A DNA stretch of 64,000 bases, from the NCBI GenBank assembly GCA_965209085.1, contig OZ242376.1:768001-832000 (forward strand), in the 5' to 3' direction. The DNA comes from Nitrosopumilaceae archaeon. GTDB lineage: Archaea > Thermoproteota > Nitrososphaeria > Nitrososphaerales > Nitrosopumilaceae. Shown here piece after piece: positions 2,963-37,820 of the stretch. Under the pieces are notes generated by a model, which saw nothing but the letters and a program-made list of their open reading frames with translations, searched no databases and was not told the DNA's origin. Both the position numbers and the translations under genes were made by a program. The stretch's first letter is position 1. The number at the start of each line of letters is the position of its first letter.

Positions 2963-3100
2963 TTTGACCGGGTTCTGTGTAGAATACGGGAGCTTGACTA
3001 GAGTGTGTAATTTCGGGAGTTTTTTGGACGATTTGCGATCAGAATGCGACATACTCACGAATATCCGAATAAATTCTGTTCAAATCACTATTGGGTAAAG
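2963..3100 (+). mobile_element. GGTTCTGT-type element end preceded by 8-mer TTTGACCG; left junction of island
   Basis: TTTGACCG (2963-2970) then GGTTCTGTGTAG..GTGTGTAATTTCGGG..TTGCGATCAGAAT; homologous to 37709-37870. Confidence 0.75.
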
Positions 3101-3294
3101 GATGTAGGATTTATGTTGTGGTTGCAGCACAGTTCTGCAAGAGTGATGTGCGTGTTTATTGACTCCATGATGATACGCACCTTTTCGTCTGGAGCATGAT
3201 GTGATCTTTTCATTGATGAATACCTCCAAGACTGGATAAAATTTGTTCCACTTTGGGCGTTCTCATTTTATGGGGCCCACTCCACACAGCAGCA
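3100..3294 (-). mobile_element. IS3-family left-end fragment (IRL + 5' orfA)
   Basis: Matches the 5' end of the IS3 copy starting at 26907 (TGGAGTGG..ATAAAATGAGAAC). Confidence 0.85.
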
Positions 3295-3403
3295 CGGATA
3301 CTCCCACTCACTCCAAAGGTCTCACGAACCACGAACTCAGGGATTTGCCAACACTTCAAGTGTATCGGACTTGCATGTTTTCAGTCCAGTCCAAATTCTA
3401 AGA

Positions 3404-6400
3404 CTAGGTATCATCGTATATGATTATAGTTCTAATTTTGCTCTCAGGCATGTTGCCGGCCGCATCGGGGGGCGCAATGTATTCTATAAAATACATTCCA
3501 GGCTGTAAAGTGCTCAGAGCAGTAGAGTTTTCACGCGTCGTACCCTGATACGTTGGATCATTATCGTGTACAGAGGCGCCAGCATCCGTATACTCGGATC
3601 CTGCAGGAATTCTCGCTGTAAGATTTCCGTCCAGTTGGATTGTAGGCGCATCCATGTCCACAAAGACGTTTGGTGAGTCAAGATCTGATTCGATTGCAAA
3701 TACGGTTCTGCCAGCAGAGTCAACGGCGGTAATGGCAAAGGTTGCATGACCGGCATCGCCTGCCAGTACGGATGCGCTTGCATATACTATATTCTCTGTA
3801 AAGACAACATTTGCATCCCTTCCCATAATGGTTGCAGATGCATCCGCAATATCTTCACCCAAAACCCATCTTATGGTGAGCAGATCGCCGGCATTTGCGT
3901 ATTCATAGTTTGGATTGTTGGATTTTATAATCAGACCTTGCTCGTGTTTTGGGTCTTTGAAATTGGCAGCAGCTACTCTGATTGAATCAAGCATTGATTC
4001 GTATGATTTGTCACCGTGCGCCGGAGTGCCACCCTGCGACGAGATTGGGTTTGCAGACGGACCAAGACTGACTGTCTGAATTCCCTCACCGTTGCTGCCT
4101 ATAACAGCATACAGGTCTGAATTGATTTGTACTGCCGAGACGCTTGTAGCAAGACCTGTGGATACAAAGCCGCCATAGCCATCACGGATTCCTGCAGCAG
4201 GTGTAGGATTGGAAGGATCTGTAATGTTTAATATCTGCACGCCGTCATCCTCGTGACTTGCCACAAGTGCATACACAAGTTGCCCTGATTTTACAATATC
4301 AACACCCATTGGAGCCTGCAGTGATTCAAAGATTGTTGGATGACGCTCAAAGCTGTCTCTGGGCGAAGATAAAACGCTCGGTGCGGTGGGGTTTGTAATT
4401 TCTATTATGTATACCTTGTTGTAATATGTGGAAGATATGACCGAAAAGGTTCTGCCATCATTCTGCACTATGTCGTTTGTGTTGAAATGGTATGGAAAGT
4501 ATACATAGTAAAATGGATTGGCGTTTATAATTAGTGTTACAAATGGGTTTGCAGGATCTGAAATGTTTATGAATAAATTCGAACCCCAGCCGGTTGAACC
4601 CAAAACGATAGCAAACGTTTCAGTACCGATTCGTACCGTATCTACATGGTAGGGGTCACCGCCAGTGAACGCAAATGTGGCTGTCGGATTTGTCGGATCG
4701 GTAATGTTTATGATTTGAAGTCCGTCATTCTCGCTTGCAATTATTGCAAACGTGTCATCGCCTATCTCAAAGGCGTCCACATCAAAGGCTCCATCAAGCG
4801 CTGTAAACGGTGTTGGGTTTTCATCCGTACTGTCAGTTATGCCCGCCACTGCGATGGGGTTTGTCGGATCTGTAATGTTTATGATTTGCAATCCGTCATC
4901 ATCATAGCTTGCAATTAGGGCATACGTGTTTGTGCCTATCCTTGTCGTATCCACGTTGCGAGGACCCTGCAGTTCCGTAAAGCTGTCCGTCCCATCGACC
5001 ATGGAGCTGATGGCAGCAGGGTTTGCAGGATCGGTAATGTCAGTTATTCTGGCATTACTTGAATGCCAATCCACGGTTATGGCATATGTTCCAAAACCGA
5101 TCTTTACAGTCTCTACATTATATACAGGATCAAATGCAAACTGACCGCCAATGCGTAGATTACCCAAAGCTACAGGATTGTCCATTGCTGCCGGATCTGA
5201 ATTTGTCGTGCCAGTTATGTTTACGGTGCGGGTTGTACCAACTAGTCTGTTACCACTATTGTCTCCGCCTCTGTTTCCGCTTGGATCTGGGGTTATATGA
5301 TATACGATCGTGTATGTTCCTACTTTGCTCGTGTCAATAAGGTTGGCATTGGATGTAACGGTTCCCACGTATGTGGGATCGTTATCGCGTGCTTCCACAC
5401 CTTGTTCATAATACTGGGTGCCGCGAATTATCACAATATTCAGATCTCCTGTTAGGTGTAATGTTGGAGGGGTTGTATCCACGAATACGTTTTCGGAGAT
5501 TAGATTTGATTCAGTTACGTTTAGCATGTTGCCTAGTCCATCTTGTACTATAATCTCAAAGGTAGTATTGCCGTTTGTATCATTCCACCATACGGGAATG
5601 CTTGCAATAATGGATGTTACATTGGATGATATGCTGGCATTTTTGTCCAGTATTGTGGCAGTTACAAGATTAATCTCCATGCCTGCGTGCAATACGACGG
5701 TTATAATATCATCTGCCCTTGCGCGGTGTACGTTTGGATTGCTACTGTATATGTCCAGACTGTACGAGATTGATTCGGTAATGGTGATTGGTTCCTCCCC
5801 TGTCACGTTCACGATGCGGGTTATGATCGGTGCCTGGTTTCCTGCAAGATCTGCGTCTGCGGTGTATTCTATGATGTGTATGTCGGGTACGGAGGTGCTC
5901 ACATCCGTGGCATTTGAGGTAATATTGCCTTTGTATGATGGATCATTGTCGGATAATAATGCTCCCGGGTCTACATATTCTTGTCCTATCTCTATATGAA
6001 CAATTGGCATGCCAATTAGGGTCAGATTGGGCGCGATTGTATCAACGTAGACGTTTGTATCTGTCAGATCGTGTTCTGATATTTTGAGTCTAGAGAGTAT
6101 GTCTATTAGTGAAATCGCAAATGTGAGATTACCGTTTGTATGATTTTCATGTATGGTAAAAGTTGCAGTCAATGTGTTGTTGTTTATGATCGGCAGGATG
6201 GTTTTATTCAAGACGGTCATTTCTGCACCGTATATGAGTCTGTTTGTTTGCAGTTCAAGTGTAACGTCATCTCCAGTTTTGGCATATGCGTGATTTTGCC
6301 CGTTGGATGTGGCACTAAACAAAGTTATCGCATACGGGACTGGATCAAATACTGTTACGGTTCGCGTTTTATTTTCAGGTATATTTCCTGCCTGATCTGC

Positions 6401-9400
6401 ATCAGCTGAACATTGTATGGTTTGATTTCCCAGTTTGGATGTGTCAATCAGTGTGTGATTTGAGGTTACAATGCTGGCATAGGATGGATTGTTTGCATCA
6501 GATACTGAACATCCCAGATCAAAGTAAAAGCTGTTATGCACTTGAGTTACGGGGTTGTCTCCTATTATGTCGATGATTGGTTTTACTGTGTCCACTATGA
6601 TATTGGCGGATGTTAAGTTGTCATGAGTTGCAAGCAATATTTTATTTCCGGGTGCATTTGCCATGATTGTAAATGATACAGGACCGTTTGTATCCTCAGT
6701 CATTACAGTCTGTACCGCACTTATTGAACCATTTTGTATTAGAATTGTGGCGTTGCGATCCAGTATCATGGCAGTAATGTTTGATATGGGTCCTGTTACA
6801 TTCATTGTTGCGGTAATATTGTCTCCAGTTTTTGCGTAGAGGTTATTGGTATTGGAATTTGATATTGTAGGAATTATGAATTTAGTTTCGTAGTTTATTT
6901 TAAGATCACCATATATATGAATGTCATTCAAATATACATGTTCGTTATGACTGTCGCTAGCGACTGTAAAGCGCAGTGTAAGACTGTCACTGTAGATATA
7001 TTTGCCAATATCTATATTATCACTAGACCATTCTATACCGAAACGTTCCTCGTTATTGTGGCGCTCCGTATAATTTGCCACCTGCTGCCAGCTGCCATTT
7101 CCGTCATTTGCTTCAATTTTTAATCCCTCATCGTTATAGTCATCAACATTTGTCATACGATATGAGAAATTAAGATGAACTTTTTCATAAGGGGTCATAT
7201 TCAAACCGTTTTTCATAACAAGTATACAATCTTGATCACAGTCAACCGCATGAAAGACAGTATCATCAACATTGTTTTGGTTTGTGGTGTTTGTGATTAG
7301 CCAATCTTCTCCTGAGCGATCCCACTCTTGGAACGTATCTGCATGATCTTGGAAAATTGTCACATTTTTGGATTTTATTTTTATTTCTATTGTTTCTGTT
7401 CCTGTAATGTTTGCATCGTTTATGCGTATAATTTCATCACTCTTACTACTAATGGCCGTTACGCGCACGTTAAAATTCTCACTGGATGAATATTCATCCA
7501 AATTCATGTTCATTTCAGTCCATGTGAATGAATCTGTGTTTACATCATCAAAAAATGCAATCTCGTGCCACGAGTTAGATACGTTGGATACTTCTATTCT
7601 GAGACCTTCATTTTGGTATGCATCTATTCTGCTTGATAGATAATACCAGAGATTCAAGTTGGCATTATCATACTCTGTTAGATTCATACTTTGTATCGTA
7701 ACTAGTTCGCACTCGTTATCGCAATCACTTGCCTCCAGCACCTCGTCCATTACGCCGTACTGGTTTATAACTGACTCATCTGTCCATGGGGAATTTGAGT
7801 TCCATAATATTTCAGCAAGTTTAGTTATCTCTTTTATGATATAATGACCATCATCATCATCATGATACAAATAGATGAAATCTCGGGCTATATTCCCTTG
7901 TGCATCTTCTGCCATTGCAGTGACCGTATTGGTAGAACGGGATAATGATATTGTGGTAGACCAGATGTGCAAATTATTTGTCAGATTGGAATTGAGCACA
8001 TCATTAACAAAAATCGTTATAGAAGTGACATTAATGTTATCTGATGATGTTCCATTAATGACAATGTTTTTACTTTGGAATGTGGATCTATGTGACGGAT
8101 GCGTGATTTCAATTTGTGGATTGGTTTTGTCCACATAATATCGGATGTTATTATGATGAAAGTTTAATCCTAGTGATGGATATCCCAAATTGTTCCAATT
8201 ATTTTCAAAGTCAAAGATTGTTGATGAATTATCATATTTAAATGCGCGCCATAACTGGGATTCAGTAGAAAGTGTGTCGTTGATTTCATTGGCATCATCA
8301 TATATATCCCATAAAGAGGCTGCCACCCATGATTCATATTTGCTGCCAGTAATGTTAAATCGATCAGAAAAAGGATATTCTGTAGTAGTACCAGCGTTGA
8401 AAGTTGCATACTCAAAATCAATTGGATCAACATAAAACCCAGGATACAATATGGGCGAATCCCTCATCCATATTGTAAAAAACCAAGCCCAACCTTCAAC
8501 CCATCCGCATTTATCGGTGTAATGGCTATCAATATTATGACCACGACATATGGGTATTTCTGAATTTAAATTTATATAAATTTGATCTTGAATATGATGG
8601 GCGTATTCATGTGGGAGTACAGCAGTAATGTTATAATTCAGCACATATGGAATATAGATTGTCGCATTTAGATAGGATGCCGGTCTAATATCATTTAATG
8701 TTACGTTAACGGTAGGTGCATCATACGACACCTTTGAGTATAATAAATCATGCATGGATGTCACATCAGCATACATTTGATGTGTAATTGGATAATTCAT
8801 CGGATATTGGTTTACGGTACCTACGTAAATTATTCTATCTTGTATGCCATAACGTATATTTGCAAGTGATTCATAAAATTCCACAGGTTTGTTATTGTTT
8901 ATAATTTTAACTGCATCATTTACTAATGATACACCAATAAGTAAATCCATGTATCCCCCACCAGGATTTGGATCCTCATTTATTCCTATTAATTTAAAGA
9001 AGCCATTAGAATATGATCGAGTACAAACATCACGGTCGCCACTTTTTAATATAGTCATATCACTATTATTGTGTATATTAACATCGAATGCACATATGAG
9101 ATAATCATCTGCTGGAACATGATTTAGATCCTCATTTATGGTATTATAATACCCATATACATAAAATTGAAGCGGAGCTGCTGCTGTCACCTTGGGTAAA
9201 AAAAAATCATTAAATATTGTATTTTGTGTTGAAAATTCCGGATATGCGTTAAAAAAATCATCTACAAAATCTTCTGAAAGATTTTCATCCATCAGCCAAT
9301 TTTTAGTAATTTGAATACCTTCATTTTTTTCCACTGATCTTAAAAATTCGGCAAGGCCTTCCCAACCTGGTTGAGGCACATATCCGGGTTCTTTAACTAC

Positions 9401-10402
9401 ATTTGGCGGCGGAGTAAATTGTTGGACAGGTTGAGGTTTTGGTATGTAATCAGGCAGACCACTTGGCAATGTTTCAAATTCCCGATCGCCACTAAACCAT
9501 TTTTGTGTTGTATGATTAAAGGACAATCCGAAATATTGTGTGGTATCGCGATAACTAGATACTCTAAATTCCGGATCTGTGTTGGATATAGCTTTTACTC
9601 CATGTTCAGTAGGGGTTAGTTGTAAATCCAATCCCACATCATGCACCCCTACACTAAAGATACTATCTGTATGCACCAGTGGTCTTGTTAATTGAAACTT
9701 TATGGAACCGTGGACAGTTTCATTAGTAAAAAATATGGGCTCTCCATGATAAACTACTTTCAGATATCTTATATGAGGACTTGCTGCGATTGATTTAGGT
9801 TTGAATGAATCAGTCAGCATGATAAATTCAGAGTGTAATATAATCTTAGGAACAACCATCACATCGTTTCCATGTATATCGAGATATCGAATATTACCAT
9901 TTTCATCAATACGATGAGGTCTACCATCAGGTACAGCATATTGAGGAGTGCCATCCTCATCAAGCCAATCCACGGTATAATTTATTATAGATGTTTCATT
10001 AATTTTGATATCTCGTGAAACTTCTAATGAAATAAATGGACTCACAAGATTTATAAAAGATTGATGTGATCCGCTAGTGATGGTAATTTTTCCATCATTG
10101 GCATTTGTTTCTCTAGATGTATTTACGGCAGGATATTTTATTTCAGTATGTTGTGTATTGGTCAATACCGACCATCCGAGTTTTTGAGCGGTTTTTTCTG
10201 ATACGCATGCAATTTTATCCATTCCTCGATCAACGAGTAAAAGATCGTCTCGGCATACTATATTATGCGGCATCGTTCCACTATCAAGCTGTTTTTTTGG
10301 ACTTTGAACATAATCTGAGGGTTGCGCGTATGTGGTAGAGATTGTGACAGTTGATAATATTATAATTAATGTGAGAATGAATAAAATTTGATAGTTTGGC
10401 AT
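3404..10402 (-). CDS. Giant (2332 aa) secreted/surface protein: putative Zn-peptidase domain, repeated Ig-like/DUF5011-like modules, LVIVD-like propeller
   Basis: Signal peptide; SPKKQ..C..ACV..LGW thaumarchaeal motif; HEYAH + EGWA zincin motif; four S(N)xxxxYAxxGD...VDTxxP..G modules; repeated QIINITDPTNP. Confidence 0.8.
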   Translation of the reverse strand: MPNYQILFILTLIIILSTVTISTTYAQPSDYVQSPKKQLDSGTMPHNIVCRDDLLLVDRGMDKIACVSEKTAQKLGWSVLTNTQHTEIKYPAVNTSRETNANDGKITITSGSHQSFINLVSPFISLEVSRDIKINETSIINYTVDWLDEDGTPQYAVPDGRPHRIDENGNIRYLDIHGNDVMVVPKIILHSEFIMLTDSFKPKSIAASPHIRYLKVVYHGEPIFFTNETVHGSIKFQLTRPLVHTDSIFSVGVHDVGLDLQLTPTEHGVKAISNTDPEFRVSSYRDTTQYFGLSFNHTTQKWFSGDREFETLPSGLPDYIPKPQPVQQFTPPPNVVKEPGYVPQPGWEGLAEFLRSVEKNEGIQITKNWLMDENLSEDFVDDFFNAYPEFSTQNTIFNDFFLPKVTAAAPLQFYVYGYYNTINEDLNHVPADDYLICAFDVNIHNNSDMTILKSGDRDVCTRSYSNGFFKLIGINEDPNPGGGYMDLLIGVSLVNDAVKIINNNKPVEFYESLANIRYGIQDRIIYVGTVNQYPMNYPITHQMYADVTSMHDLLYSKVSYDAPTVNVTLNDIRPASYLNATIYIPYVLNYNITAVLPHEYAHHIQDQIYINLNSEIPICRGHNIDSHYTDKCGWVEGWAWFFTIWMRDSPILYPGFYVDPIDFEYATFNAGTTTEYPFSDRFNITGSKYESWVAASLWDIYDDANEINDTLSTESQLWRAFKYDNSSTIFDFENNWNNLGYPSLGLNFHHNNIRYYVDKTNPQIEITHPSHRSTFQSKNIVINGTSSDNINVTSITIFVNDVLNSNLTNNLHIWSTTISLSRSTNTVTAMAEDAQGNIARDFIYLYHDDDDGHYIIKEITKLAEILWNSNSPWTDESVINQYGVMDEVLEASDCDNECELVTIQSMNLTEYDNANLNLWYYLSSRIDAYQNEGLRIEVSNVSNSWHEIAFFDDVNTDSFTWTEMNMNLDEYSSSENFNVRVTAISSKSDEIIRINDANITGTETIEIKIKSKNVTIFQDHADTFQEWDRSGEDWLITNTTNQNNVDDTVFHAVDCDQDCILVMKNGLNMTPYEKVHLNFSYRMTNVDDYNDEGLKIEANDGNGSWQQVANYTERHNNEERFGIEWSSDNIDIGKYIYSDSLTLRFTVASDSHNEHVYLNDIHIYGDLKINYETKFIIPTISNSNTNNLYAKTGDNITATMNVTGPISNITAMILDRNATILIQNGSISAVQTVMTEDTNGPVSFTIMANAPGNKILLATHDNLTSANIIVDTVKPIIDIIGDNPVTQVHNSFYFDLGCSVSDANNPSYASIVTSNHTLIDTSKLGNQTIQCSADADQAGNIPENKTRTVTVFDPVPYAITLFSATSNGQNHAYAKTGDDVTLELQTNRLIYGAEMTVLNKTILPIINNNTLTATFTIHENHTNGNLTFAISLIDILSRLKISEHDLTDTNVYVDTIAPNLTLIGMPIVHIEIGQEYVDPGALLSDNDPSYKGNITSNATDVSTSVPDIHIIEYTADADLAGNQAPIITRIVNVTGEEPITITESISYSLDIYSSNPNVHRARADDIITVVLHAGMEINLVTATILDKNASISSNVTSIIASIPVWWNDTNGNTTFEIIVQDGLGNMLNVTESNLISENVFVDTTPPTLHLTGDLNIVIIRGTQYYEQGVEARDNDPTYVGTVTSNANLIDTSKVGTYTIVYHITPDPSGNRGGDNSGNRLVGTTRTVNITGTTNSDPAAMDNPVALGNLRIGGQFAFDPVYNVETVKIGFGTYAITVDWHSSNARITDITDPANPAAISSMVDGTDSFTELQGPRNVDTTRIGTNTYALIASYDDDGLQIINITDPTNPIAVAGITDSTDENPTPFTALDGAFDVDAFEIGDDTFAIIASENDGLQIINITDPTNPTATFAFTGGDPYHVDTVRIGTETFAIVLGSTGWGSNLFINISDPANPFVTLIINANPFYYVYFPYHFNTNDIVQNDGRTFSVISSTYYNKVYIIEITNPTAPSVLSSPRDSFERHPTIFESLQAPMGVDIVKSGQLVYALVASHEDDGVQILNITDPSNPTPAAGIRDGYGGFVSTGLATSVSAVQINSDLYAVIGSNGEGIQTVSLGPSANPISSQGGTPAHGDKSYESMLDSIRVAAANFKDPKHEQGLIIKSNNPNYEYANAGDLLTIRWVLGEDIADASATIMGRDANVVFTENIVYASASVLAGDAGHATFAITAVDSAGRTVFAIESDLDSPNVFVDMDAPTIQLDGNLTARIPAGSEYTDAGASVHDNDPTYQGTTRENSTALSTLQPGMYFIEYIAPPDAAGNMPESKIRTIIIYDDT

Positions 10403-10437
10403 AATATTATATATATTTCATAATATTAATACATATC

Positions 10438-10522
10438 GGTTGTTTACTCTGTTAACTCTTATGTCTTTTCCACTATTTCAGACCTGCTGTTAATTTAGAG
10501 TGTTTTTCTGTTAACTTGGGGA
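10438..10522 (+). repeat. 85-bp repeat, copy 1 (identical to 17571-17655)
   Basis: GGTTGTTTACTCTGTTAAC...CTGTTAACTTGGGGA; three CTGTTAA motifs. Confidence 0.85.
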
Positions 10523-10652
10523 GGTGAGATAAAATTGGATCGTAATATGTCCATCTATTGTTAACATCCGAGAAAATCTAGCAGGCATATTCCATAACGT
10601 GGTAGAATTTCATATAATAGCACATTTATAATCATGCCACAATAATATCAAT

Positions 10653-10970
10653 ATGCAGTACATGATAATAACTCATTATCAAATATTAAAAATACTGTAT
10701 ACCAAATGGCCATACGGCATAACTGGCACTGAAATCTTGAAATATCTTCATGATAACAGTAACACTACGATTGATAATGGTGCTTTGAAAAAATATATGC
10801 TACAACTTGAAAAGGTTGGCCATATCAAGATAGGCGACTCGCCTTCATCATTAAATATTGACGACACACGTTATTTCTTAACACCAATCACGTTTTTGGC
10901 GATTTCTGAAAAATCAAAACATCCAAATTTACCATTTCCTGATGTGGAAAATAAACGCATACTTACATAG
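10653..10970 (+). CDS. Small putative winged-helix protein, possibly truncated by IS5
   Basis: ILKIL..GITGTEI..L..LEKVGHI..RYFLTP wHTH-like pattern; TAG stop is made from TA target + first IS base. Confidence 0.5.
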   Translation: MQYMIITHYQILKILYTKWPYGITGTEILKYLHDNSNTTIDNGALKKYMLQLEKVGHIKIGDSPSSLNIDDTRYFLTPITFLAISEKSKHPNLPFPDVENKRILT

Positions 10971-12403
10971 GTCATGTCACAACTATTGAAAATTCTATTG
11001 GAAATTCCATCCAAAATGACAGTAAATATTTCAAAAACACACATCTGTCATCGATATCCGGACCCATTTGTTATCAAACCGTAATTTTACACAAAAATCT
11101 TCCAAAATTCACACATCTGCATACAGCGTCCGCTAGGCTTATTGCAGTTTGTGTCAGTGTACGGCACATATTAACAAATTGTACACTAGGATTTTCATGC
11201 CAATTTCTTGCTTTATGTTTTTCATATGTCTTGATCATACATGTTCTCCAAACCTTTCTTTGAATATTGCAAAAACAATTTCAGAGTGCCATCTTTTTCC
11301 ATACTCTATATCTTTTTTCCATTTTTTCAGATTTTCCTTTCGTTTTTGTATTGAAACATCATCCATTGTACGCTTGCTTGCATCTCCTCCAAGCTGATCT
11401 TGCACCGCCGTATTGCGTTCATGACTGCCGCCTGACAGTGCTGAATTGATACGCACCTTTAACAGACCAGACATGCAAAGTTTGTCACACACGTTGTAAT
11501 TTTCTTTTGTACCGTATGCCCCATCGCCAAGAATTTTCATCATTGTGTTTTTGTATTTGGCAGTCTCTTCAGTTGAATCCATCTCAGATATCATGTGCGC
11601 AAGCTGCCATCTGATCTTTTTGCGTGCCTTTCTTATCATCTGTGGAAACTGTGATGCATCCCCCTTGTTGCTTTTTGTTATCTTAAAATCGAGTATTTCA
11701 AGCGTTTCTACGTTTATGATAAGATGCAGTTTTAGAAACGGACTTGATATGCCCCATTTTTCTTTTATCCATGATCCAAGTTTTGATAGTTTCAGTCCGC
11801 TTGAATCAATAGAGATGAGCATCGTAGGCTGTCCGTTCATGCGCCTTGTCGGATCAAGTGTTTTTAAAGACAGACCACACATGCGGGCCATCTTTTCCAA
11901 TCCGTTATCAGAAATGTCCAATCTCTGTATGCGTTTGTATATCGTACTGCTAGATGGAGATGCATCATCCATTACTTTTCTAACCATCCCTTCAATAGTG
12001 CAGCTTGAGTAACTTGTGCACGCTTGGATTACCGATAATACCCAAAAAAGCTTGTCCGGATACATGTAACGTCTGCCGTTCTTACATTTGTTCATGCATT
12101 TGAGTTCTTTTTTGTATTCTTTTGGGACTGCAAACTGGCTCAGATGGCCAAACAGCATGGATGCAGCACGGCTTTTCAGGTTTTTCTCGGCAATTCTTTT
12201 TTATCCGCCTCTTTGGTTTCTGCATTCGATATTTTTATTACACAGTGCTTTCTACTCATAGTGGATCATCTCCGTGGGTGTTTCTCATAATTCGTCCACT
12301 TTGTGGGATGATCTAAATCTATGGAATCAAAATTGTCGCCAACTTGGATATTTTAATATCGTTTTAGTCAAAATGTCAGAATTAGGCAGGTTGTGATATG
12401 ACC
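10970..12403 (-). mobile_element. IS5-family (IS903-like) element copy 1; transposase 11235-12158 with premature stop
   Basis: TIRs GGTCATGTCACAAC/GTTGTGATATGACC, TA flanks; IDSSG..KLHL..GDGAY..RWHSE DDE motifs; CGA>TGA versus copy 2. Confidence 0.9.
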
Positions 12404-12628
12404 TATGACTCGGTGCCCGTTATTATTTAATAGATGAATTCATACAGGCACAGATTTCATATATAAAACAAAGTTTAGTTTAAATGTATGAGGCAACATT
12501 GCCAAATTGATTCTGGTACGATCAATCCCATCATGTTACGATAGTTAGGATTATTACACGAGTTCACTCTTGCTTAGCCTCAACTTATAATGGTCATAAC
12601 GTGCATTTAAACTTTTCTAATAGAATTA

Positions 12629-12710
12629 TGTATGAGGTCAGCACCTCGTGCTATTTTATGCCTACATCTTCATTTATTGCATAAATTCTAGGCATGACGT
12701 GACCTCACCA
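12629..12710 (+). repeat. ~80-bp imperfect palindrome (TGTATGAGGTCA...TGACCTCA), copy 1
   Basis: Near-identical copies at 19458-19540 (reverse) and 27689-27765. Confidence 0.85.
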
Positions 12711-12757
12711 TGAAATTAAAGTTAATATTCACAATTCATCTATAATTATAGTATATA

Positions 12758-13708: not shown

Positions 13709-13902
13709 TATACCATACCATACTCTGATCGAAAATCTTCCAAAATCACATACTTCGATCTAATATATGAAAAAATCTCTCAAAATTGATACTTTCGTAG
13801 GCATATTGTTAAACAGATCTCATAACCAAATGGTGAATTCATACCTTTCTGATCGCAGATTCTGTAAAAACCCTGAAATTTCACATCTAATGATTTTCGT
13901 AA

Positions 13903-14250: not shown

Positions 14251-14252
14251 AA

Positions 14253-16130: not shown

Positions 16131-16134
16131 TATA

Positions 16135-26906: not shown

Positions 26907-28231
26907 TGGAGTGGACCCAATAAAATGAGAACACCCAAAGTGAAACAAATTTTACCCAGTCTTGGAGGTATCCATCAATGAAAAGACCCCATCATGTTCC
27001 AGACGAAAAGGTGCGTATCGTCATGGAGTCAATAAACACGCACATCACTCCTGCAGAACTGTGCCGCAAACATAACATAAATCCTGCATCCTTTACCTGG
27101 TGGAGGGACATATTCTTTGAATGTGGCAAGGCAGGCATAAAAAAACCGTATAATCGTAATGAGAGTAAAAAGCACGATCACGAGATGGACAAGTTGAAGA
27201 GAATCATTGGAGATATAACCATAGCCAATGATGTTTTAAAAAAACGTTAGAGGAGAGCACAAAATGAAAGCATTGACCCTCATGCAAAAACAAGGTTTCA
27301 GTGTCCGCAAATCCATACGTTATACCGGAATATCCAACAATATGCTGTACGCTCCGAAAAAACCACGCATTATTCAAATCGACAAGGAAATCTCAAAGAT
27401 GGTGTAACAGGTTGGTCCGAGCAGACCCACATATGGAACATGAAGAATGGCTACCACCATGTCCCGTATTACTGGCAAGCCTGTAAACTGCAAAAAAGTG
27501 AAGAAAATATACCATTATCTGGGCTGGAGTGTACCTGCAAAACCCAAAAAAGAGATCATTCGCTCAAGGAAGCGCCCAAAACCTGCAGGACCTGATCAGC
27601 TCTGGCAAGCTGACATGACGTACATTTGGTGCGGTTAGGACAGATGGTGTTATCTGTTTAACGTCCTTGATGCATTCACACGCGAATGGGTATGAGGTCA
27701 GCACCTCGTGCTATTTTGTGCCTACATCTTCATTTATTGCATAAATTCTAGGCATGACGTGACATACGCGAATGGGTGTGATATGCGTTTAAGCTCAGAG
27801 CAGTTACGGACGGTACCATTGCAGCATTAACTGAAGCATTGGCATCAAAGAAACCAGACTGCTCAAAGCTTGTTTTAAGAACCGACAACGGTTCCAAGTA
27901 TGTTCATTACAGTTTGACAAGCCGTAAAAGCATACGGTGTACGGCAGGAATTCATCCACTACCATACGCCAAAGCAAAATGCTCATGTGGAATCCTATCA
28001 TAAGAGCCTCAAGAAAGAATATCTCTGCCGCGCGACTTGAGACGTTCCAGGACGCAGAGGCTGCAATATCATACGCCTTTGAGGATTACAATCAGAACCG
28101 AGTACACTCTGCAATAGGATATGCGACGCCATCAGAATTTGGCACCGCACGGAGGGCAATGATAAAATGAGCCCTCTGATCCTATCATTTTTAATGCAAA
28201 AAACGTTCTCCTTCTACAGGGGTCCGCACCA
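26907..28231 (+). mobile_element. Degraded IS3-family copy with inserted palindrome
   Basis: Both TIRs; several nonsense codons; orfA core differs from the 20.5 kb copy. Confidence 0.88.
27689..27765 (+). repeat. ~80-bp palindrome copy 3, inside IS3 orfB
   Basis: Flanked by direct repeat ACGCGAATGGGT (27680-27691, 27766-27777). Confidence 0.85.
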
Positions 28232-28276
28232 AATCTACATCATAAAAAAACCAATGACCAACAGATCAGATCTTTG

Positions 28277-30157
28277 TTATGTATGATTGTTTTTAATAAT
28301 ATATTTTAAATGGTTCCACATATAATAAAAATCTGTTATTTTACTATCCTTTGAAAACTCTCTTATAAAATGATATGCTAATGCTGGCTTATGATTATGT
28401 TGTTTTTTTATCTTGTAAAATAATGATCCATTTAAATTTTCCATATATGCTTCCAAATCCTTTTTTAATTCATACATGATATTTTTATCATGAAAATCTG
28501 TTTCATCGATTTTTAAATCTGATGGCAATTTTGTTATTTTTGCACGATCAAATTTCCCAGGAGCACCGTTATCCATTAATAATAAACATGGGATTTTAAA
28601 TGCATCCATAAATTTTTTAAATTTTGGCATAGATGTACTTCCATATGTACTAATAATCATAACATCATCTGTAAAATAATTTGAATCATTAATGCTATTT
28701 AATAATGCATTGAAAAATATTTCGTCTGATGCACCTTCTACAAGAATAACGCCTTTTGAAAATAGTACATCTAATTTTAATAAATGAAAAGTTGGTAATT
28801 CTCTAGTTATCCATATTTTGTCATCATCAGATGGTTGAGTTATCATACTTGTATTATTTTTGAATATTCTGATAATATTTGACATGGATAATAATTTAGT
28901 ATTTGATACAATCACAGAGGAATGAGTAATAATGACAAGTTGATTTTGTTCATATTGTTCAGAAAATATTTCAATCATTAATTTTTTAATCAATGTAGGA
29001 TGTAAATTTATTGCAGGTTCATCCATAAAAATTATTGATTGTTTGGTATCAAAATATTTTGTAATTAAAAACAATATTTCTCTAATTCCAGCACCCGATT
29101 CCATGAATTTTATGGGATCATCTGGCGAACTATGTTCATTTCGAAATGTAACAGATACTTTATCACGTTGTGTTGATGATTGTCCAGTATCATTGTTACT
29201 AGGATTCTGCATTGATACATCAAATGACATATTTTCACTCTTCATAATTTTTGAAAACGTACATTGAATTTTCTTAAATAATTCACGATTATATAGATCT
29301 TGACTATTTTGTAACCGATATAGATAACTATGTAAATTGTCACCATTATTTAGCAATGGTGACGTGTTTGGAATATTTTCAGGAACAAAATGTCTTTCTT
29401 CCGACATGAATGACATTTTTTGACCAAATAAATAACCTAACATATGTAAAAATGATAATTCTCTGCCGGGGCTTATTGATTGATTAGATAAAGATAATAT
29501 GAATTTTATTCTTTCTGAAATATAAGGATCGCGATTATCTTGAAATAATCCTTCATGTCTAAAACCATATACTATGCACTTTGAATTAAATTTATTCAGA
29601 AAAGCAGATTTTGTAAATTGTTCTATTCCAACAGATTCAATTATTGAAACAAATGTTGGATTATCATTATTTAATGTTTCAATATCAAATTTATGGATGA
29701 ATGGGCCATGATTTTTATCATATGTGATTTCTATGTCCAAATCCAGAATTTTCATTGAAAAATTATCTATATCGGCATCATCACCATAGGGATTATCATC
29801 CCATTGCATAGTTATTTCTATATTTTTAAATTTATCAATAAGTAATTCAATTATGTGTGATGAAGCCAATGTGTATTTATCTCCAGTTTTATAGATAGTT
29901 AACAATTCAACTATATATTTACTTTCTAAATCAGTTAATGATATTTCTAAGGTCAATTTGTGATTAGATTGCGATTTCCATTGTTTTGGTAACCTATAGT
30001 GTTGTGTTAATGACTTTATAAAAAAATTAATTGCTTTAAATATTGAAGATTTTCCAGAATTATTGTGTCCAACTATAAAATTTTTACCATTCAAATAAAT
30101 CGTTTGTTTAGATTTATACGAATACATCCCTTCAATATCAATACGATTAATTTTCAA
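28277..30157 (-). CDS. OLD-family ATP-dependent nuclease (ABC ATPase + TOPRIM)
   Basis: VGHNNSGKSS, SGAG, FMDEPAINLHP, ITHS, VILVEGASD, LLMDNG. Confidence 0.88.
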   Translation of the reverse strand: MKINRIDIEGMYSYKSKQTIYLNGKNFIVGHNNSGKSSIFKAINFFIKSLTQHYRLPKQWKSQSNHKLTLEISLTDLESKYIVELLTIYKTGDKYTLASSHIIELLIDKFKNIEITMQWDDNPYGDDADIDNFSMKILDLDIEITYDKNHGPFIHKFDIETLNNDNPTFVSIIESVGIEQFTKSAFLNKFNSKCIVYGFRHEGLFQDNRDPYISERIKFILSLSNQSISPGRELSFLHMLGYLFGQKMSFMSEERHFVPENIPNTSPLLNNGDNLHSYLYRLQNSQDLYNRELFKKIQCTFSKIMKSENMSFDVSMQNPSNNDTGQSSTQRDKVSVTFRNEHSSPDDPIKFMESGAGIREILFLITKYFDTKQSIIFMDEPAINLHPTLIKKLMIEIFSEQYEQNQLVIITHSSVIVSNTKLLSMSNIIRIFKNNTSMITQPSDDDKIWITRELPTFHLLKLDVLFSKGVILVEGASDEIFFNALLNSINDSNYFTDDVMIISTYGSTSMPKFKKFMDAFKIPCLLLMDNGAPGKFDRAKITKLPSDLKIDETDFHDKNIMYELKKDLEAYMENLNGSLFYKIKKQHNHKPALAYHFIREFSKDSKITDFYYMWNHLKYIIKNNHT

Positions 30158-30251
30158 TGCGTTTTTTGATCAATCGCTTTATATAAATTAGTAGCGGATA
30201 TTTGTATGAGGTCATATATTAAATGATGTCGAGTACGCATATTGGCATATT

Positions 30252-30476
30252 TTATTGGAATTCATCAGGTGCTTTTATGAAGTCATATTCCGAGTGAATT
30301 TTTTTAAATATTATCCACATCTTTCCTTCAAAAAAAACTACTTGTTTTCCTCCACTTGGCAATCTTTGCACACAATTGTCAACATCAGTACGGGTATTCA
30401 TTGGTAGTATTTCGTGAAATGGTTTCTCGTATTTATACGGGATTATGTCAAAATCCTCCGAATCAGGCATATCCAT
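30252..30476 (-). CDS. Small hypothetical protein (MDMPDSEDF...); ORF-track 5' extension is repeat-derived
   Basis: ATG 30476 lies 42 bp from element end with TATA-like box between. Confidence 0.4.
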   Translation of the reverse strand: MDMPDSEDFDIIPYKYEKPFHEILPMNTRTDVDNCVQRLPSGGKQVVFFEGKMWIIFKKIHSEYDFIKAPDEFQ

Positions 30477-30518
30477 GATACAGTTTATTGGGCATAATTC
30501 ATAAAATTTATGTTTGAT

Positions 30519-30730
30519 GGCTCTGAAATCCGTGGAGGTTGTGACTAGGTATGAAGTTTCGGGGGTTTTTCTATATGTACTATAAAGTGTGTAAAATTTG
30601 GGGTTGGTGCAACATGCCGAAGTATTATTTGGGATATATACGATCAAAATTTTTCTAAAATGACGATATAATTTTAGATGTGTCAAATTCTTATAACACA
30701 GATCAAATATGATGTTTCAGGGTTTTTTGG
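30519..30730 (+). mobile_element. Degenerate GG(C/T)TCTG element end
   Basis: GGCTCTG..GAAGTTTCGGGGG..GTGTGTAAAATTTGGGG..GATCAAAATTTTTCTA..ATTTTAGATG matches 14076-14250. Confidence 0.75.
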
Positions 30731-30951
30731 AGGATCCACGATCATAATGGTGTGGGTAAGCAGGTTAGTCTTGGTAACCACTGCTATGTAATAGAAGATT
30801 ACCCTCACCCATAGTGGGATATTTTTGTTCTGATAGGAATGATCATTTTTGTACAAAATTCCTTTTTCCACATCCAATACATTAAAATCAATTCTCCGAT
30901 CTAACCAACTGCCATTTTTGGATTTTTTCTAGTGATTTACTCCAGCATTTA

Positions 30952-32169
30952 TAGTATAAGAAGTTATTAATTACGTTTAACCACTCTGTAACAAAAATTT
31001 AATCGCTACGTTTAGATCGCACCAGATTTAAGAGCAAATATGACGCGACAGAACAGAATTCCGACAGGCATCGAGTTCATGCCAAACATGAGCATCACAT
31101 ATCTTAGAAATTGTTATGCAAAAGAAAAGATTCCAGTTGCAAAACAGCGTCTTCTGTCATGGATTAAAAGAAAACAGGACAAAACAATGGAGAAGATTGG
31201 CGAGGAGCTTGGCGTAAAAGAGACAACAGTATGCAAATGGCTCATACGGGTAATGGAGGATGGACTAGCCTCAAGATACAACATAAAACGTCTTGGCAGG
31301 GAATGCCATCTTTCAGAAAAACAGCTTGAAAAACTAACAAAGGATCTGATTGCCGGACCTGAAAAATGCGGATATAGTCAGTCCGCATGGTCTACTGTAA
31401 TGGTAACGGATCACATTTGGAAAAAATTCAAGGTACAATATGTCCCACGTTCTGTACAAAATTTACTCAAACGTCTTGGATTTACAATTCAAAAACCCCG
31501 TCAGTACCATCCCAAAGCTGCATCAAAGAGTGAACAGGAACGCTTTAAAAAAAAACTAGGCACATATTGGCACAAAGAGAGGCACACGGAGCAGTAACTG
31601 TATCCATGGATGAGATTCATCTTTACCCAACAACCAATATCCGTAACGCATGGTACCTCATAGGCAGCAAACCCCAAGTTCCATTAGATCCGACCAGACA
31701 CAGAATAACCATGTTTGGAGCTTTAAGCAAGGATTCTTTCATATTCGAGTTTTACGATAAAGCAAACAAAGACAGTCATTTGGATTTTATAAAAATCCTG
31801 GAAAAAGAGTTTGGCCGTGTGACAATAGTGCATGATAATGCATCTTATCATCGCCACCGTGACGTATTTGAATACATCAAATCTAGAAAAGGACGAATCA
31901 GTTTAATTTATCTTCCACCGTATACGCCAGAGCTGAACCCAATAGAAATCCAGTGGCGTGTTTTACGAAAATGCATATCAAATGGGCATTTTGAATCGAT
32001 CAGACACCTGAAAAAGAAAATTGACCGGGTCATATTGTCTAATCAGATGAAACTTGTCAAACTGCACGATTATCTAATTTTTTAGAAACAATAATGTGGG
32101 GTAATTGTTACTATGGAGATTGTATTCGGTGTGTTTGTGATAAAATGTAAATTATAAATTCTTATACTA
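30952..32169 (+). mobile_element. IS630-family element, inverted copy of 14913-16130
   Basis: Identical proteins (31040-31597, 31567-32085); TA flanks. Confidence 0.92.
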
Positions 32170-32171
32170 TA

Positions 32172-32381
32172 TCTCTGGCCGCGCAACTTTGAGACGTTCC
32201 AGGACGCAGAGAATGCAATATCATACGCCTTTGAGGACTATAATCCAAACTGGGTACACTGCAATAGGATGTGCGATGCCATCAGAATTTGGTCTCGCGC
32301 GGAGGGCAAGACAAAAATGAGTCCTCCGATCATATCATTTTTAATACAAAAAACGTTCTCATTGTACCGGGGTCCGCACCA
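32172..32381 (+). mobile_element. IS3-family right-end fragment
   Basis: Ends GGGGTCCGCACCA. Confidence 0.8.
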
Positions 32382-32415
32382 ATCTTTTAATAGTATCCGC
32401 ATTAATAATTAATTC

Positions 32416-32868
32416 ATGGTAATCGAAATTACCAAGTTAGAATTACCTGCGTTAAAACGATTATCAAAGATAATAAGTGTTAGAACAGGCACCGAAATTA
32501 CAGATTTATTTAGAAATGCAGGATATGGGCATATTAAACATGATGAAAGAACAAAATGGAAATTTCTTTATCAAACGTTTGATGAATTCCAGGATCAGAG
32601 TAAAGGTCAGTATATTATTATTAAATTTTTAGAAACTGCGTGTAATCCTCAAGAATTTTTTGAATATCCCGATAGTAGAAAATCTTTTGTAGATGAGATT
32701 AATACTGTATTGGCATTTTATAATTTAAAAATTAACGATCAAGGAAAAGCACAACATGTATCTGAAAAACATACAACAATATCAGATATTGAAACCATAG
32801 ATGAAAAATTATTTGAACAAAGAAACTATCATGAACAAATTATTAAGCATGTATACCCCAGATCATAA
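32416..32868 (+). pseudogene. TIGR02391-like protein N-terminal part, truncated by IS630
   Basis: TGTEI..TKWKFLY..CNPQEF..INTVLAF..RNYHEQIIK pattern; ORF runs into TIR at 32852. Confidence 0.6.
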
Positions 32869-33964
32869 ATTCGTTTAAAAATTCACCAATTCTGGTTTAA
32901 AATAATCAATGACATTACCCGGCAGTTTTCTCGTACGCAGATATTCCATAAACCTAACCCTCTTCTCTTCAAGTTGGGGATAATATTCCGAATGATCCAT
33001 ATCCCGCTTGGCGACAAGCCAGATCGTCTCCATGATGTTGTGTTGCGGTGATGCTCTTGGGAGGTATTCTATCCGAATCTTATCCTTGTTCTCTTTGATG
33101 TATTCTTCAAGCTTTATCGTTTTATGCTGCCGGGCTCTGTCTACGATTACCAGTATTCTGCCGTATTTTGCTGCTGCATCTTTTATGTATCTTAAAAACG
33201 TCAGACCATCAAACTTGTCGTATGATCTAAAAAATTTATCCCCTGAAACTGAAATCATTCCGTATGTTATGAATTTTCTGCGATCCCCCTTCCATGTATA
33301 GGTGGGGCGTTCATTCTCATTGCACCAGTATTTTTTAGTCAGTTTACCATCACTGCTCACTATGGTCTCATCCTGGACAAAGATCTTTGTCCCTCTTGCC
33401 ATTTCGTGGGCAATAATGCACATTATGCGCCTATACCATGCATAACGCTCATCGTATGATGCAGCATTAGCGTGTATTTTTTGCGGTACCTTTGATTTTA
33501 GTTTCCATTCCCGCATCAGTCTGCATATGTGCGTAATAGGATATGTTATTCATGTCATATTTTTAATGTAATCGCGGACCTGCTTTGGAAGCGTAATGGT
33601 TCCAATTTTTGTAAACTTTTTTTCCATCTGCATCATGATATTTTGTGAAATCTTTGGCGGTCGTCCGCATCGGGACCCTTCCTCCAGGCCTATGAGTCCG
33701 TATTTTTCGTATCGATCGTGCCATTTGTGTACAAACTGGTACGTTCGGAATACGAGATCCGCGGTTTCTTGTATGTCGTAGCCGCGTATTTGCACCAGAC
33801 ACATCGCATGCAGTCTTGTTTCTACGCGAGAATCTTTGCAGCCATTATAAGCCTGGAGGAGATCCTCATTGCTAACTTGCATGAATTGGTTCCGATGTCG
33901 TGATCAAAAAACGTTGCTACTGTGTAATGGTGGATTTTTAAACGAATTTATGCTTGCGGGTATA
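32852..33964 (-). mobile_element. Third IS630-family element (ORFs 33550-33882, 32875-33516)
   Basis: TIR TATACCC..CATAAATTCGTTTAAAAAT.CACCA at both ends; QDET..VDRARQH..SPQHNIME. Confidence 0.88.
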
Positions 33965-34049
33965 GATCATAGATCTTTCTATTTGTAAAAATTGCTTTTT
34001 TGGTTAATTATGCATAAGGTCTATTGTCAACCACTATGAGATGAGCCTG

Positions 34050-34514
34050 CTAGGAGAGCCATGGGTGCAAAATAAACCAAATGTAAGTGAGGCCAATTAC
34101 AGTTATTCCCACCCTCTTAAATGTTTTACCTGCGATAATCATACTTACTAATTCTTTTGGGTTACGTTTTCTGTATTTTTTTATCGCGTGCATTTGAATT
34201 GCAAATGCTATCGGCATCCAAAATATTAAGTTTGTAGTTAATAAAAAAACAAATGATTCCACGTCACCAGCAAAATACAATTGATAATCTATGAATCTAA
34301 AAGTCATCGCTATATCAAACCAAATACCTAAAATAAATGCCGGATTTAATAATATAATAAAATGGGTTAAAAAATGATGTTCATGTGATAACGGATCATA
34401 TAGTATTATCATATTTATGATATTTGTACCGTAAGCATATCCCCACAAAATAACATATATCAACCATTTATGGCGTATGCAAATAAAATAAAGAAATGAC
34501 GACATTATATCCAA
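34050..34514 (-). CDS. Multi-pass membrane hypothetical protein
   Basis: About four hydrophobic segments. Confidence 0.45.
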   Translation of the reverse strand: MDIMSSFLYFICIRHKWLIYVILWGYAYGTNIINMIILYDPLSHEHHFLTHFIILLNPAFILGIWFDIAMTFRFIDYQLYFAGDVESFVFLLTTNLIFWMPIAFAIQMHAIKKYRKRNPKELVSMIIAGKTFKRVGITVIGLTYIWFILHPWLS

Positions 34515-34555
34515 TAATAAATTTTATATATATTAAAACTTTGTATTCAGTGATA

Positions 34556-34854
34556 TAGTATAAGAATTTATAATTTACATTTTATCACAAACACACCGAA
34601 TACAATCTCCATAGTAACAATTACCCCACATTATTGTTTCTAAAAAATTAGATAATCGTGCAGTTTGACAAGTTTCATCTGATTAGACAATATGACCCGG
34701 TCAATTTTCTTTTTCAGGTGTCTGATCGATTCAAAATGCCCATTTGATATGCATTTTCGTAAAACACGCCACTGGATTTCTATTGGGTTCAGCTCTGGCG
34801 TATACGGTGGAAGATAAATTAAACTGATTCGTCCTTTTCTAGATTTGATGTATT
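34556..34854 (-). mobile_element. IS630 right-end fragment (same element as 14913)
   Basis: Matches 14913-15211. Confidence 0.9.
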
Positions 34855-34874
34855 AGGCCTTATGCATAATCATA

Positions 34875-36307
34875 GGTCATATCACAACCTGCCTAATTCT
34901 GACATTTTGACTAAAACGATATTAAAATATCCAAGTTGGCGACAATTTTGATTCCATAGATTTAGATCATCCCACAAAGTGGACGAATTATGAGAAACAC
35001 CCACGGAGATGATCCACTATGAGTAGAAAGCACTGTGTAATAAAAATATCGAATGCAGAAACCAAAGAGGCGGATAAAAAAAGAATTGCCGAGAAAAACC
35101 TGAAAAGCCGTGCTGCATCCATGCTGTTTGGCCATCTGAGCCAGTTTGCAGTCCCAAAAGAATACAAAAAAGAACTCAAATGCATGAACAAATGTAAGAA
35201 CGGCAGACGTTACATGTATCCGGACAAGCTTTTTTGGGTATTATCGGTAATCCAAGCGTGCACAAGTTACTCAAGCTGCACTATTGAAGGGATGGTTAGA
35301 AAAGTAATGGATGATGCATCTCCATCTAGCAGTACGATATACAAACGCATACAGAGATTGGACATTTCTGATAACGGATTGGAAAAGATGGCCCGCATGT
35401 GTGGTCTCTTTAAAAACACTTGATCCGACAAGGCGCATGAACGGACAGCCTACGATGCTCATCTCTATTGATTCAAGCGGACTGAAACTATCAAAACTTG
35501 GATCATGGATAAAAGAAAAATGGGGCATATCAAGTCCGTTTCTAAAACTGCATCTTGTCATAAACGTAGAAACGCTTGAAATACTCGATTTTAAGATAAC
35601 AAAAAGCAACAAGGGGGATGCATCACAGTTCCCACAGATGATAAGAAAGGCACGCAAAAAGATCAGATGGCAGCTTGCGCACATGATATCTGAGATGGAT
35701 TCAACTGAAGAGACTGCCAAATACAAAAACACAATGATGAAAATTCTTGGCGATGGGGCATACGGTACAAAAGAAAATTACAACGTGTGTGACAAACTTT
35801 GCATGTCTGGTCTGTTAAAGGTGCGTATCAATTCAGCACTGTCAGGCGGCAGTCATGAACGCAATACGGCGGTGCAAGATCAGCTTGGAGGAGATGCAAG
35901 CAAGCGTACAATGGATGATGTTTCAATACAAAAACGAAAGGAAAATCTGAAAAAATGGAAAAAAGATATAGAGTATGGAAAAAGATGGCACTCTGAAATT
36001 GTTTTTGTAATATTCAAAGAAAGGTTTGGAGAACATGTACGATCAAGATATATGAAAAACATAAAGCAAGAAATTGGCATGAAAATCCTAGTGTACAATT
36101 TGTTAATATGTGCCGTACACTGACACAAACTGCAATAAGCCTAGCGGACGCTGTATGCAGATGTGTGAATTTTGGAAGATTTTTGTGTAAAATTACGGTT
36201 TGATAACAAATGGGTCCGGATATCGATGACAGGTGTGTGTTTTTGGAAGATTTACTGTCATTTTTGATGGAATTTCCAATAGAATTTTCAATAGTTGTGA
36301 CATGACC
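34875..36307 (+). mobile_element. IS5-family element copy 3, frameshifted transposase
   Basis: Same TIRs, TA flanks; 2-bp deletion near 35408. Confidence 0.9.
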
Positions 36308-36331
36308 TACCATTATGCATACGCTCTAATA

Positions 36332-37497
36332 TGTAATATTCAGATTGAATTTTGGGATATCCTAAAAGTAGTATACCCCTTACTTTGCATCATATTCCTC
36401 CCCTGCCTGCTCGTCAATAATCCTTTCGCCCGGTTCTGGCATCTTTCTTGCAAATGCCTGTACTGGCGTCTCTCTGTTTTCTGTATCCAATGACATGTGT
36501 ACTCTGTCCATGTGGTACCATCGCATGAACAAATCTATAGGATTGTTGACTCGCTGCATAATGCTCTCAAACTGGGGCAGTTTGTGCTGTATCTCACCAT
36601 GCAGACGCTCAAGCTTGCCATTGGTCTGGGGATGATTCACGCGTGCCAAAATATGTTTTATGCTAAGATCTACAAGTTTCTTCTCAAATTTGGACGGACC
36701 TTTCTTTTTCATCTCTGATACATTGGCGTAAAACTGTGCATCATGGTCAGTCATCACTGATGCAGGTTTGCCGTGCTCTTGTATTGCCTTTTCTAAAACA
36801 GTATGGCATTATCAACAGTTGCATGCTCAAATGTACAATATCTTGTAACAAAACGTGAGGCATCATCAAGATAGCACAGAAACCATCTGCCATCATCTAG
36901 CAGTTTATAGTCAGTATGCCCACATGGAATTGGAATATCTGCGCTCATATCGAACCCATTTGCGCTGTTTACTCTTTTTTGGATACTTTGAGGCCAGATC
37001 CTCGTCTATCAATATGCGGTGTATTGTATTGTGAGTGATATGCATGCCTGTATTTGATTCGATGTCTTTTTCCAGATCAGTTGCCCCGTTGTGTTGTCTG
37101 CCGTGTGCACAGTACTGCAGAGTGTTCTGTGCGTCCTGTAAGGCTGTTACACGGTCTTCCCATTTGGACCCGATATGATATTTTGCCCTAGTATGCCTGT
37201 GTTTGGCCCAAAGCTTTTTGATCCATACTGCAGATACTTGCATTGTATCAGCCATCCTACTAGTAGCAACTCTCTTGTGTTTTTGCGATATTATCCAGTT
37301 TACCTTGGCCTCATCAAGCTTTTTCATTATGCATATACGCCGTCTGCCAATTGCCTCCACGACTTGAAATGTTTAGCCACGCACACCATTGTTTCCTGCG
37401 AGTAAGACAGATACTGTGTTTTTGAGTATCTTGATACCCTGGGTCTAGGGGCATACTACTTTTAGGATAATAGATCCAAATATCGCAATCATTACCA
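36332..37497 (-). mobile_element. Degraded IS481-family element
   Basis: TGTAAT..ATCCTAAAAGTAGTATACCCCT long TIR at both ends; RYERRYSNSMW..MTDH..HPQTNGKLER. Confidence 0.82.
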
Positions 37498-37533
37498 ATA
37501 TCCAAGATTTAGATCACCTATGATGGTTTTCAT

Positions 37534-37820
37534 GAGTTCTGCCCATCTAAAACTAGATCGCTATTTCAAAAAAACCCTGATCGCAAATATCCCAAATAAT
37601 GCCTCAACATATTGCATCAACCCCCGAATTTACACACTATTTTGTATATAAAGCAAAAACCCCCGACATTACACACTATAGACCAACCCCCGCCTGTTAC
37701 ACAGAACCTTTGACCGGGTTCTGTTCAGAATTCGGGGGGTTTGGGTTGGCGTTCAGTTTCGGGGGGTTTTTTGCTTATATGTAAAATGGTGTTCAATTTC
37801 GGGGGGTTTTGCGATCAGAA
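37534..37820. repeat. Second head-to-head GGTTCTGT end pair around TTTGACCG
   Basis: ..TACACAGAACC (37708) TTTGACCG GGTTCTGTTCAG (37717); same iterated arms as 13903-14250. Confidence 0.9.

Follow-up and report, generated by a model that had tools for sequence, protein, structure and literature searches.

A promoter-anchored island in a Nitrosopumilaceae archaeon, probably built by repeated insertion of IS6-like units at one 8-bp target

The window analysed here, 64,000 nucleotides of a Nitrosopumilaceae archaeon (contig OZ242376.1, positions 768,001 to 832,000), sits in one 1.69-Mb contig of a genome that is rich in insertion sequences (IS) and of the ammonia-oxidiser type, and it contains an island that begins beside a cupredoxin promoter and is probably a stack of mobile units (Table 1). 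Relatives of the transposases of this genome carry titles from Nitrosopumilus, Nitrosarchaeum and Nitrososphaerales. The tip sequence GGTTCTGT is present at all five island tips (2971, 14067, 14076, 37708 and 37717), and the original prediction that a single 8-mer, TTTGACCG, touches element tips at 2963, at 37709 and, reversed, at 14068 was confirmed to the exact position. The number of copies alone is barely enriched, with five in the window against 1.84 expected from shuffling, and 39 genome-wide; the signal is that all five island tips touch one 8-mer. The two remaining window copies lie off the tips, at 26797 in a multi-copy short repeat and at 52038 in purC.

In G001, which belongs to the same genus, about 87 bp separate the cupredoxin promoter from the orthologue of the open reading frame (ORF) at 49523-50815, and from this empty-site synteny the island is taken to span 2971 to about 49530. 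Multi-copy IS DNA amounts to 17.8 kb of the island, with IS3, IS5, IS630 and IS481 pieces abundant in unit 2, and the units, now 11-24 kb long, were therefore probably enlarged after arrival. The only head-to-head junctions in the source genome (G000) are the two in the window. Contigs of four runs (X1-X4, the first two of which may be the source sample) were compared with the window, the listed joints involving IS repeats. The 37709 junction is crossed without differences by contigs from two other runs (X3, 37213-38032; X4, 37306-37939) and the 2963 junction by one contig from another run (X4, 2924-3144); no spanning contig piece was present for the 14068 junction among the pieces listed, and no empty site or other unit number was seen at the junctions in the contigs of the four runs.

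Table 1. Features of the island and its surroundings, in window coordinates
Feature	Position	Strand	Remarks
Host cupredoxin gene, promoter anchors the stack	2272..2928	-	PF00127; syntenic in G001; start codon 43 bp from tip
TATA-like box CTTATATT, cupredoxin promoter	2950..2957	-	Starts 14 bp outside tip; promoter element predicted from sequence
Promoter-proximal 8-bp target TTTGACCG	2963..2970	+	Read from sequence; adjoins tip at 2971
Unit 1, tips A (2971) and B (14067)	2971..14067	.	2332-aa (amino acids) Ig-domain surface protein, IS5 copy, epimerase
End B with epimerase	12788..14067	-	95.6% copy at C1:661077-662349 with a different 8-bp flank
Reversed 8-mer (CGGTCAAA on +)	14068..14075	-	Separates abutting tips B and C
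Unit 2, tips C and D	14076..37708	.	Tips 85% alike over 144 bp
TM0106-family nuclease, unit 2	21311-22795		
OLD-type ATPase/TOPRIM, unit 2	28277-30157		
Decayed nested tip within unit 2	30519..30754	+	Weak TATA-like TTTATGAA at +14; cargo-ORF start codon at +43
8-mer TTTGACCG	37709..37716	+	Separates abutting tips D and E; spanned by X3 and X4 contigs
Unit 3, tip E	37717..49530	.	Serpin (38403-39824), NurA-like gene, deoxyhypusine synthase; right boundary inferred from G001 synteny
Separate 1.2-kb element of the same family	56176..57407	.	Decayed duplication (6/8); TATAAATA at +14; Mrp gene start codon at +44
Unpaired tip of the same family	62376..62444	+	TATAAATA at +14

Head-to-head tips 8 bp apart were found in 49 of 400 family genomes, against 16 for a reversed control pattern, and they enclose many different 8-mers; about a third of these matches may have arisen by chance. 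Twenty such loci, picked because they had several junctions or long contigs, were fetched; in 13 of them an outer tip has the same 8-mer as the junction. Several of the fetched loci are stacks of two to four distinct elements of ~2.3-4.7 kb, most with a transposase, that share one common 8-mer, and each stack locus has its own. Such locus-specific 8-mers indicate that the 8-mer is a target duplication and not a recombinase core, which answers in favour of target duplication the check first proposed for this locus, namely whether head-to-head pairs elsewhere carry a local 8-mer. Neighbours in a stack are only 68-79% alike, mostly over the transposase and in either orientation, and so represent separate insertions rather than unequal crossing-over. 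Repeated 8-mers within loci, different between loci, together with divergent neighbours, thus lend support to the earlier proposal that repeated insertion re-duplicates one 8-bp target. Phylum-wide, the junction pattern occurred in 22 of 401 genomes (three control matches), and of 14 loci inspected one had a transposase match within 1.5 kb and several were chance-like; the range of the family's stacks is established here within the order only.

A search of the whole genome for inverted tips that have a flank in common returned the A-D pair and an autonomous element of 4440 bp at C1:570889-575328 of the source genome; a third inverted-tip pair, 88 kb apart with 15 of 45 bases matching, was set aside as chance. 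The autonomous element has 25-bp inverted ends starting GGTTCTGT, the duplication TGTGATAA and an IS240-domain transposase, the gene for which is broken by an IS5, and an uninterrupted 3040-bp copy is present at C1:1312905-1315944, its 371-aa transposase being encoded at C1:1313915-1315027. An element of 9 kb with a matching duplication is found at C1:469764-478719. Three transposases of the genome (P0001-P0003; 371, 541 and 378 aa), all encoded outside the window, comprise a SWIM-like motif (with a weak Pfam match in one of the three), a zinc ribbon, an HTH (helix-turn-helix) and a DDE domain. PF13610 scores above its cut-off for all three, and IS6 (NF033587) is the best NCBIfam model yet stays below its cut-off (116, 106 and 112 bits against 125). 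A predicted transposase structure (predicted local distance difference test, pLDDT, 84.6) matches RNase H-like DDE enzymes, a PDB sequence search with the transposase gave no matches, and the nearest plasmid relatives are of the ISCpe7 type (28.6% over 76% of the protein). Database annotation of this transposase family is IS6-like. An alignment scan gave 51 loci, and a metagenome scan with P0003 found nothing. ISL3 elements also have GG tips and an 8-bp duplication; an ISL3 origin was rejected, as PF01610 had no matches in the source genome and the same model, as a control, matched in 5 of 14 genomes. Elements of the present family are 1.8-4.9 kb in size with cargo, encode transposases of 371-541 aa and have GG tips with a cTGT motif flanked by 8-bp target duplications, and GG tips with cTGT and an 8-bp duplication are the IS6 consensus (PMC7986276, PMC6807381). 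No cognate transposase is present within the units or the window, where the only match is an IS481 fragment, and it is very likely that the window units were moved in trans by the SWIM/zinc-ribbon/DDE transposase of the genome.

Many elements of 1.29-1.37 kb with GGTTCTGT tips and 8-bp duplications, without an IS6-like transposase match, were observed at L117-L144 (genome G310) and L145-L166 (genome G408). The three that were translated (e.g. L118:303-1496) contain a TnpB-like ORF of ~400 aa, the one scanned matching NF040570 at 129 bits against a cut-off of 100, and several of these TnpB-type elements sit at TATA +14. Carriage of TnpB by DDE elements has been reported, with IS240 unnamed in the main text (PMC10691335).

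The island tips also stand at a characteristic distance from promoters. Outward from tip A the order is CGGTCAAA, AAACG and CTTATATT, followed by the cupredoxin start at +43, the 8-mer ending 5 bp upstream of the TATA box, with the target lying at -13 to -6 before it. A-rich bases resembling a B recognition element (BRE) occupy 2958-2963, beside the TATA-like box, and AACGCTTATAT at this promoter is conserved in G001. The same geometry recurs at 57407, at 62376 (TATA only) and at 30519 (weak TATA), as well as at ends next to msrA and other genes. The second copy of end B and epimerase lies 13 bp from the msrA TATA box; with its new flank and the same offset, it shows that cargo moves with an end. 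In the source genome, strict TATA was found at +13-16 in 11 of 26 ends and a start codon at +43-46 in 10 of 26, the 26 having been hand-picked after their flanks were seen and serving as a discovery set only; among ends of other IS and repeat families in this genome, the control, the values were 12/227 and 10/227. The test set was drawn from relatives only: a tip pattern yielded, after de-duplication, 133 ends that do not face a junction. Strict TATA occurred at +13-16 in 28 of these 133 free ends, eight other windows giving 1-8; for a start codon at +43-46 the count was 28 of 129, with 0-9 elsewhere. As no element can face a promoter with both ends, 21% of ends corresponds to about 40% of elements. 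Strict TATA is missing from 16 of the 28 start-codon ends, and this points to working promoters over one motif, although a near-TATA is seen in many of the 16.

Further evidence comes from 19 elements, one of them from the source genome, that were found by their transposase and have an 8/8 duplication (one bacterial element, two duplicates and non-8/8 elements were left out). With a TATA score matrix learned from gene upstreams of the source genome, 13 of the 19 reach at least 3 bits at +14-16, compared with at most 6 at distant offsets, and 1 does so on both sides. The offset is seen in elements with perfect duplications and was therefore set at insertion; it is a strong bias, not an absolute rule. 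One type of promoter, which carries a TACCGTAC/TATACGGTA-like palindrome just downstream of TATA, was struck repeatedly in different genomes (L058, L059, L062, L067, L071, L075 and C1:1315944 of the source genome) and is likely a hot spot.

At a rough probability of 0.78, the island is a stack of IS6-like units with GGTTCTGT tips, without a transposase of their own, that arrived by promoter guidance and re-duplicated TTTGACCG. The SWIM/zinc-ribbon/DDE transposase, in trans, would act on the unit tips and dock beside promoter-bound TBP and TFB, whereby the 8-bp target would be chosen at a fixed distance. Insertion upstream of the BRE would leave BRE and TATA intact and recreate the target, and because of this the next element would land on the same 8 bases, pushing older units outward. 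Only two TFB and two TBP genes were found in the source genome (C1:75525-78791; 1070087-1073659), which is few for the lineage and would make a test of docking simpler. The TFB-bound BRE covers nine positions upstream of TATA (PMC2699501), and the target abuts or overlaps the BRE position.

Simple stacking keeps every copy of the 8-mer in one direction, so the reversed copy at 14068 needs an extra step. A tentative proposal is that cutting at the abutting tips of units 1 and 2, and joining of these tips to the target copy next to the promoter, would have inverted unit 1 and left the order P-t-[unit 1 inverted]-rc(t)-[unit 2]-t. Rated about equal to this junction attack are other inversion routes taken together, namely homologous recombination of an IS copy in unit 1 with an inverted copy in unit 2, or replicative intramolecular transposition. 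Near-identical IS5 copies are indeed inverted at 10968-12405 and 34873-36309 and tips B and D share 87% of their bases over 97 bp, but the IS5 pair is not flanked by swapped duplications. Exchanged 8-bp flanks, which mark an inversion between copies, were observed in G408 (L162/L165; L163/L166). Replicative inversion is known for IS6 (PMC7986276), but no leftover duplicated unit was seen. The reversed middle 8-mer recurs in one relative (locus L060), where an element that keeps matched ends (22/25), a point against these other routes, lies between inverted 8-mers; the transposase of its neighbour is co-oriented, which argues against homologous inversion at that locus.

With regard to the offset, the balance tips slightly towards the bound TBP/TFB complex, rather than naked DNA, as its determinant. 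Direct reading of TATA-like sequence or bendable DNA by the transposase itself, with no host factor, would leave family and stacking unchanged and needs no partner; the extra N-terminal zinc domains could bind DNA, and the TATA peak itself is in its favour. It is nevertheless considered unlikely, because the signal is one-sided, the BRE positions +10/+11 are enriched in A (57-63%) and start codons peak at +43-46 even in promoters without strict TATA; moreover, TBP would often occupy such boxes in the cell. An improbable account is random insertion, with selection and adjacent deletions then trimming ends to the promoter edge and newcomers drawn to existing ends: it is consistent with the many unpaired ends in the source genome and with the targeting of resident copies by IS26 (PMC7986276), but the offset is already present in elements with intact duplications, the ends of other IS under equal selection show no peak, and the targeted reaction of IS26 keeps target flanks and needs end identity, whereas the stacks consist of divergent elements with new 8-mers. 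The alternative offered in the original prediction, that ACACAGAACC-8 bp-GGTTCTGTG forms the core site of a tyrosine recombinase (lox/dif-like) with the units as cassettes, retains almost no probability, for although palindromic arms surround an 8-bp spacer, that spacer differs between loci and genomes, the 2963 site has one arm with the host promoter on its other side, single elements have direct 8-mer flanks and encode a DDE enzyme, and no recombinase was found among the 57 window ORFs scanned.

Several observations weigh against promoter-guided stacking of this family. The window ends diverge from those of the autonomous element past the first 8-10 bp, and the cognate transposase may therefore be another, possibly lost, family member. 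Many tips in the source genome have no partner duplication, the similarity of ends A-D does not settle which of them pair (39-44/55 for most pairs), and neither a right end of unit 3 nor a fourth 8-mer was found with two end profiles and a two-mismatch 8-mer scan. Several stacks of relatives stand at one homologous promoter and are not independent. The strict TATA rule is passed by 8 of 21 duplication-paired elements and by just 4 of 31 ends in G408, while of the 13 stack outer ends only 2 score 3 bits or more and 9 score at least 2 bits, and the TATA and BRE boxes are predicted promoter elements. The empty promoter, where the 8-mer had been expected, keeps only 4 of its 8 bases in G001, formally a result contrary to the original prediction; G001 is only ~70-78% identical even in coding DNA and so too diverged for this to be informative, and the 11-bp stretch with the TATA box is identical. 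A G001 search with the B/C junction DNA gave no match, and a terminal inverted repeat pattern later found two ends there.

Among known systems, IS6/IS26, and nearest to the present family its long zinc-finger clade (ISCpe7), likewise have GG tips with cTGT, an 8-bp duplication and an HTH with an IS240-type DDE domain. The present transposases differ in their greater length, in the added SWIM-like and zinc-ribbon domains and in falling below the NF033587 cut-off, and the elements differ in carrying cargo inside one end pair, the IS6 norm being ~0.8 kb with one ORF of 210-255 aa; the fixed TATA offset and the stacks of divergent elements are further features of the present family. The 37 archaeal IS6 members described are ~0.7-0.85 kb, and 'Nitroso' is absent from the main text (PMC6807381). 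A fixed insertion offset to a core promoter is shared with Ty3, a DDE enzyme positioned by TBP-containing TFIIIB for harmless insertion (bioRxiv 10.1101/2021.07.27.453949). Ty3, however, is a retroelement of eukaryotes that is targeted to Pol III genes and has a TBP contact that is solved, whereas a DNA transposon upstream of the BRE of protein-gene promoters is seen here, with a proposed contact. Re-use of one target, giving tandem elements, is described for tandem casposons and tyrosine-integrase arrays of Thaumarchaeota in a source that also describes thaumarchaeal IS and whose available part does not mention promoter targeting (PMC6563490). Casposon and integrase arrays use Cas1 or an integrase at a fixed sequence (ef-2 or tRNA genes), whereas here the 8-mer varies by locus and the position is constant; Cas1 and PolB were not found among the 57 window ORFs, the rest of the genome not having been searched for them. 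Tn7 at attTn7 uses a site set by distance from a bound landmark, leaves the host gene intact and builds islands. The present family is alike in its distance-set site, spared host gene and islands, and differs in having one transposase, no TnsA/B/C/D genes seen, many promoters and an 8-bp instead of a 5-bp duplication.

Taken at its broadest, and with the odds put at even, a widespread archaeal DDE family would use the TBP/TFB complex as a landing beacon at the upstream BRE edge, as a prokaryotic counterpart of Ty3. Stacks at single promoters would give rise to surface, defence and host-interaction islands, non-autonomous members including TnpB carriers would ride along, and abutted 8-bp junctions would serve as donor junctions that invert units in place. 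Target choice by a general transcription factor is established for yeast Ty3, with no report for a prokaryotic transposon in the literature searched; likewise, no relevant literature was found on promoter targeting by such elements, coverage of subscription journals being poor. If true, this would explain the growth of large islands at archaeal promoters without integrases or tRNA sites, make insertion sites predictable from promoter geometry, mark active promoters in uncultured lineages and provide archaea with an integration tool that uses a single enzyme and spares promoters; three purified proteins would suffice for a direct test.

Within the cupredoxin gene, a degenerate 21-bp repeat region (2563-2814) codes for a Met/Glu/Asp-rich tract. 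A 92-95% paralogue of the giant surface gene of unit 1 (5928-10445) lies at C1:1198668-1203215, and part of the region upstream of the unit 1 gene is found again in unit 2 (17571-17684), beside an IS5 copy. The deoxyhypusine synthase gene (48588-49526) is missing from the G001 empty site and has two G001 copies elsewhere, each with a decayed tip-like motif about 620 bp away. The genes next to deoxyhypusine synthase differ in every one of the five genomes checked, and it may be cargo. Fragments of the IS3 family are located just inside many ends (window 3093-3284, 14253-14877, 37865-38059 and 56342-56533; C1:677226, 843280 and 469845), and IS3-like elements may favour the sub-terminal repeats. 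Other IS-rich islands of the source genome likewise start with such a tip (C1:661077, 677181 and 843157), and the region near one of them (C1:697359-723206) encodes a protein of 8615 aa.

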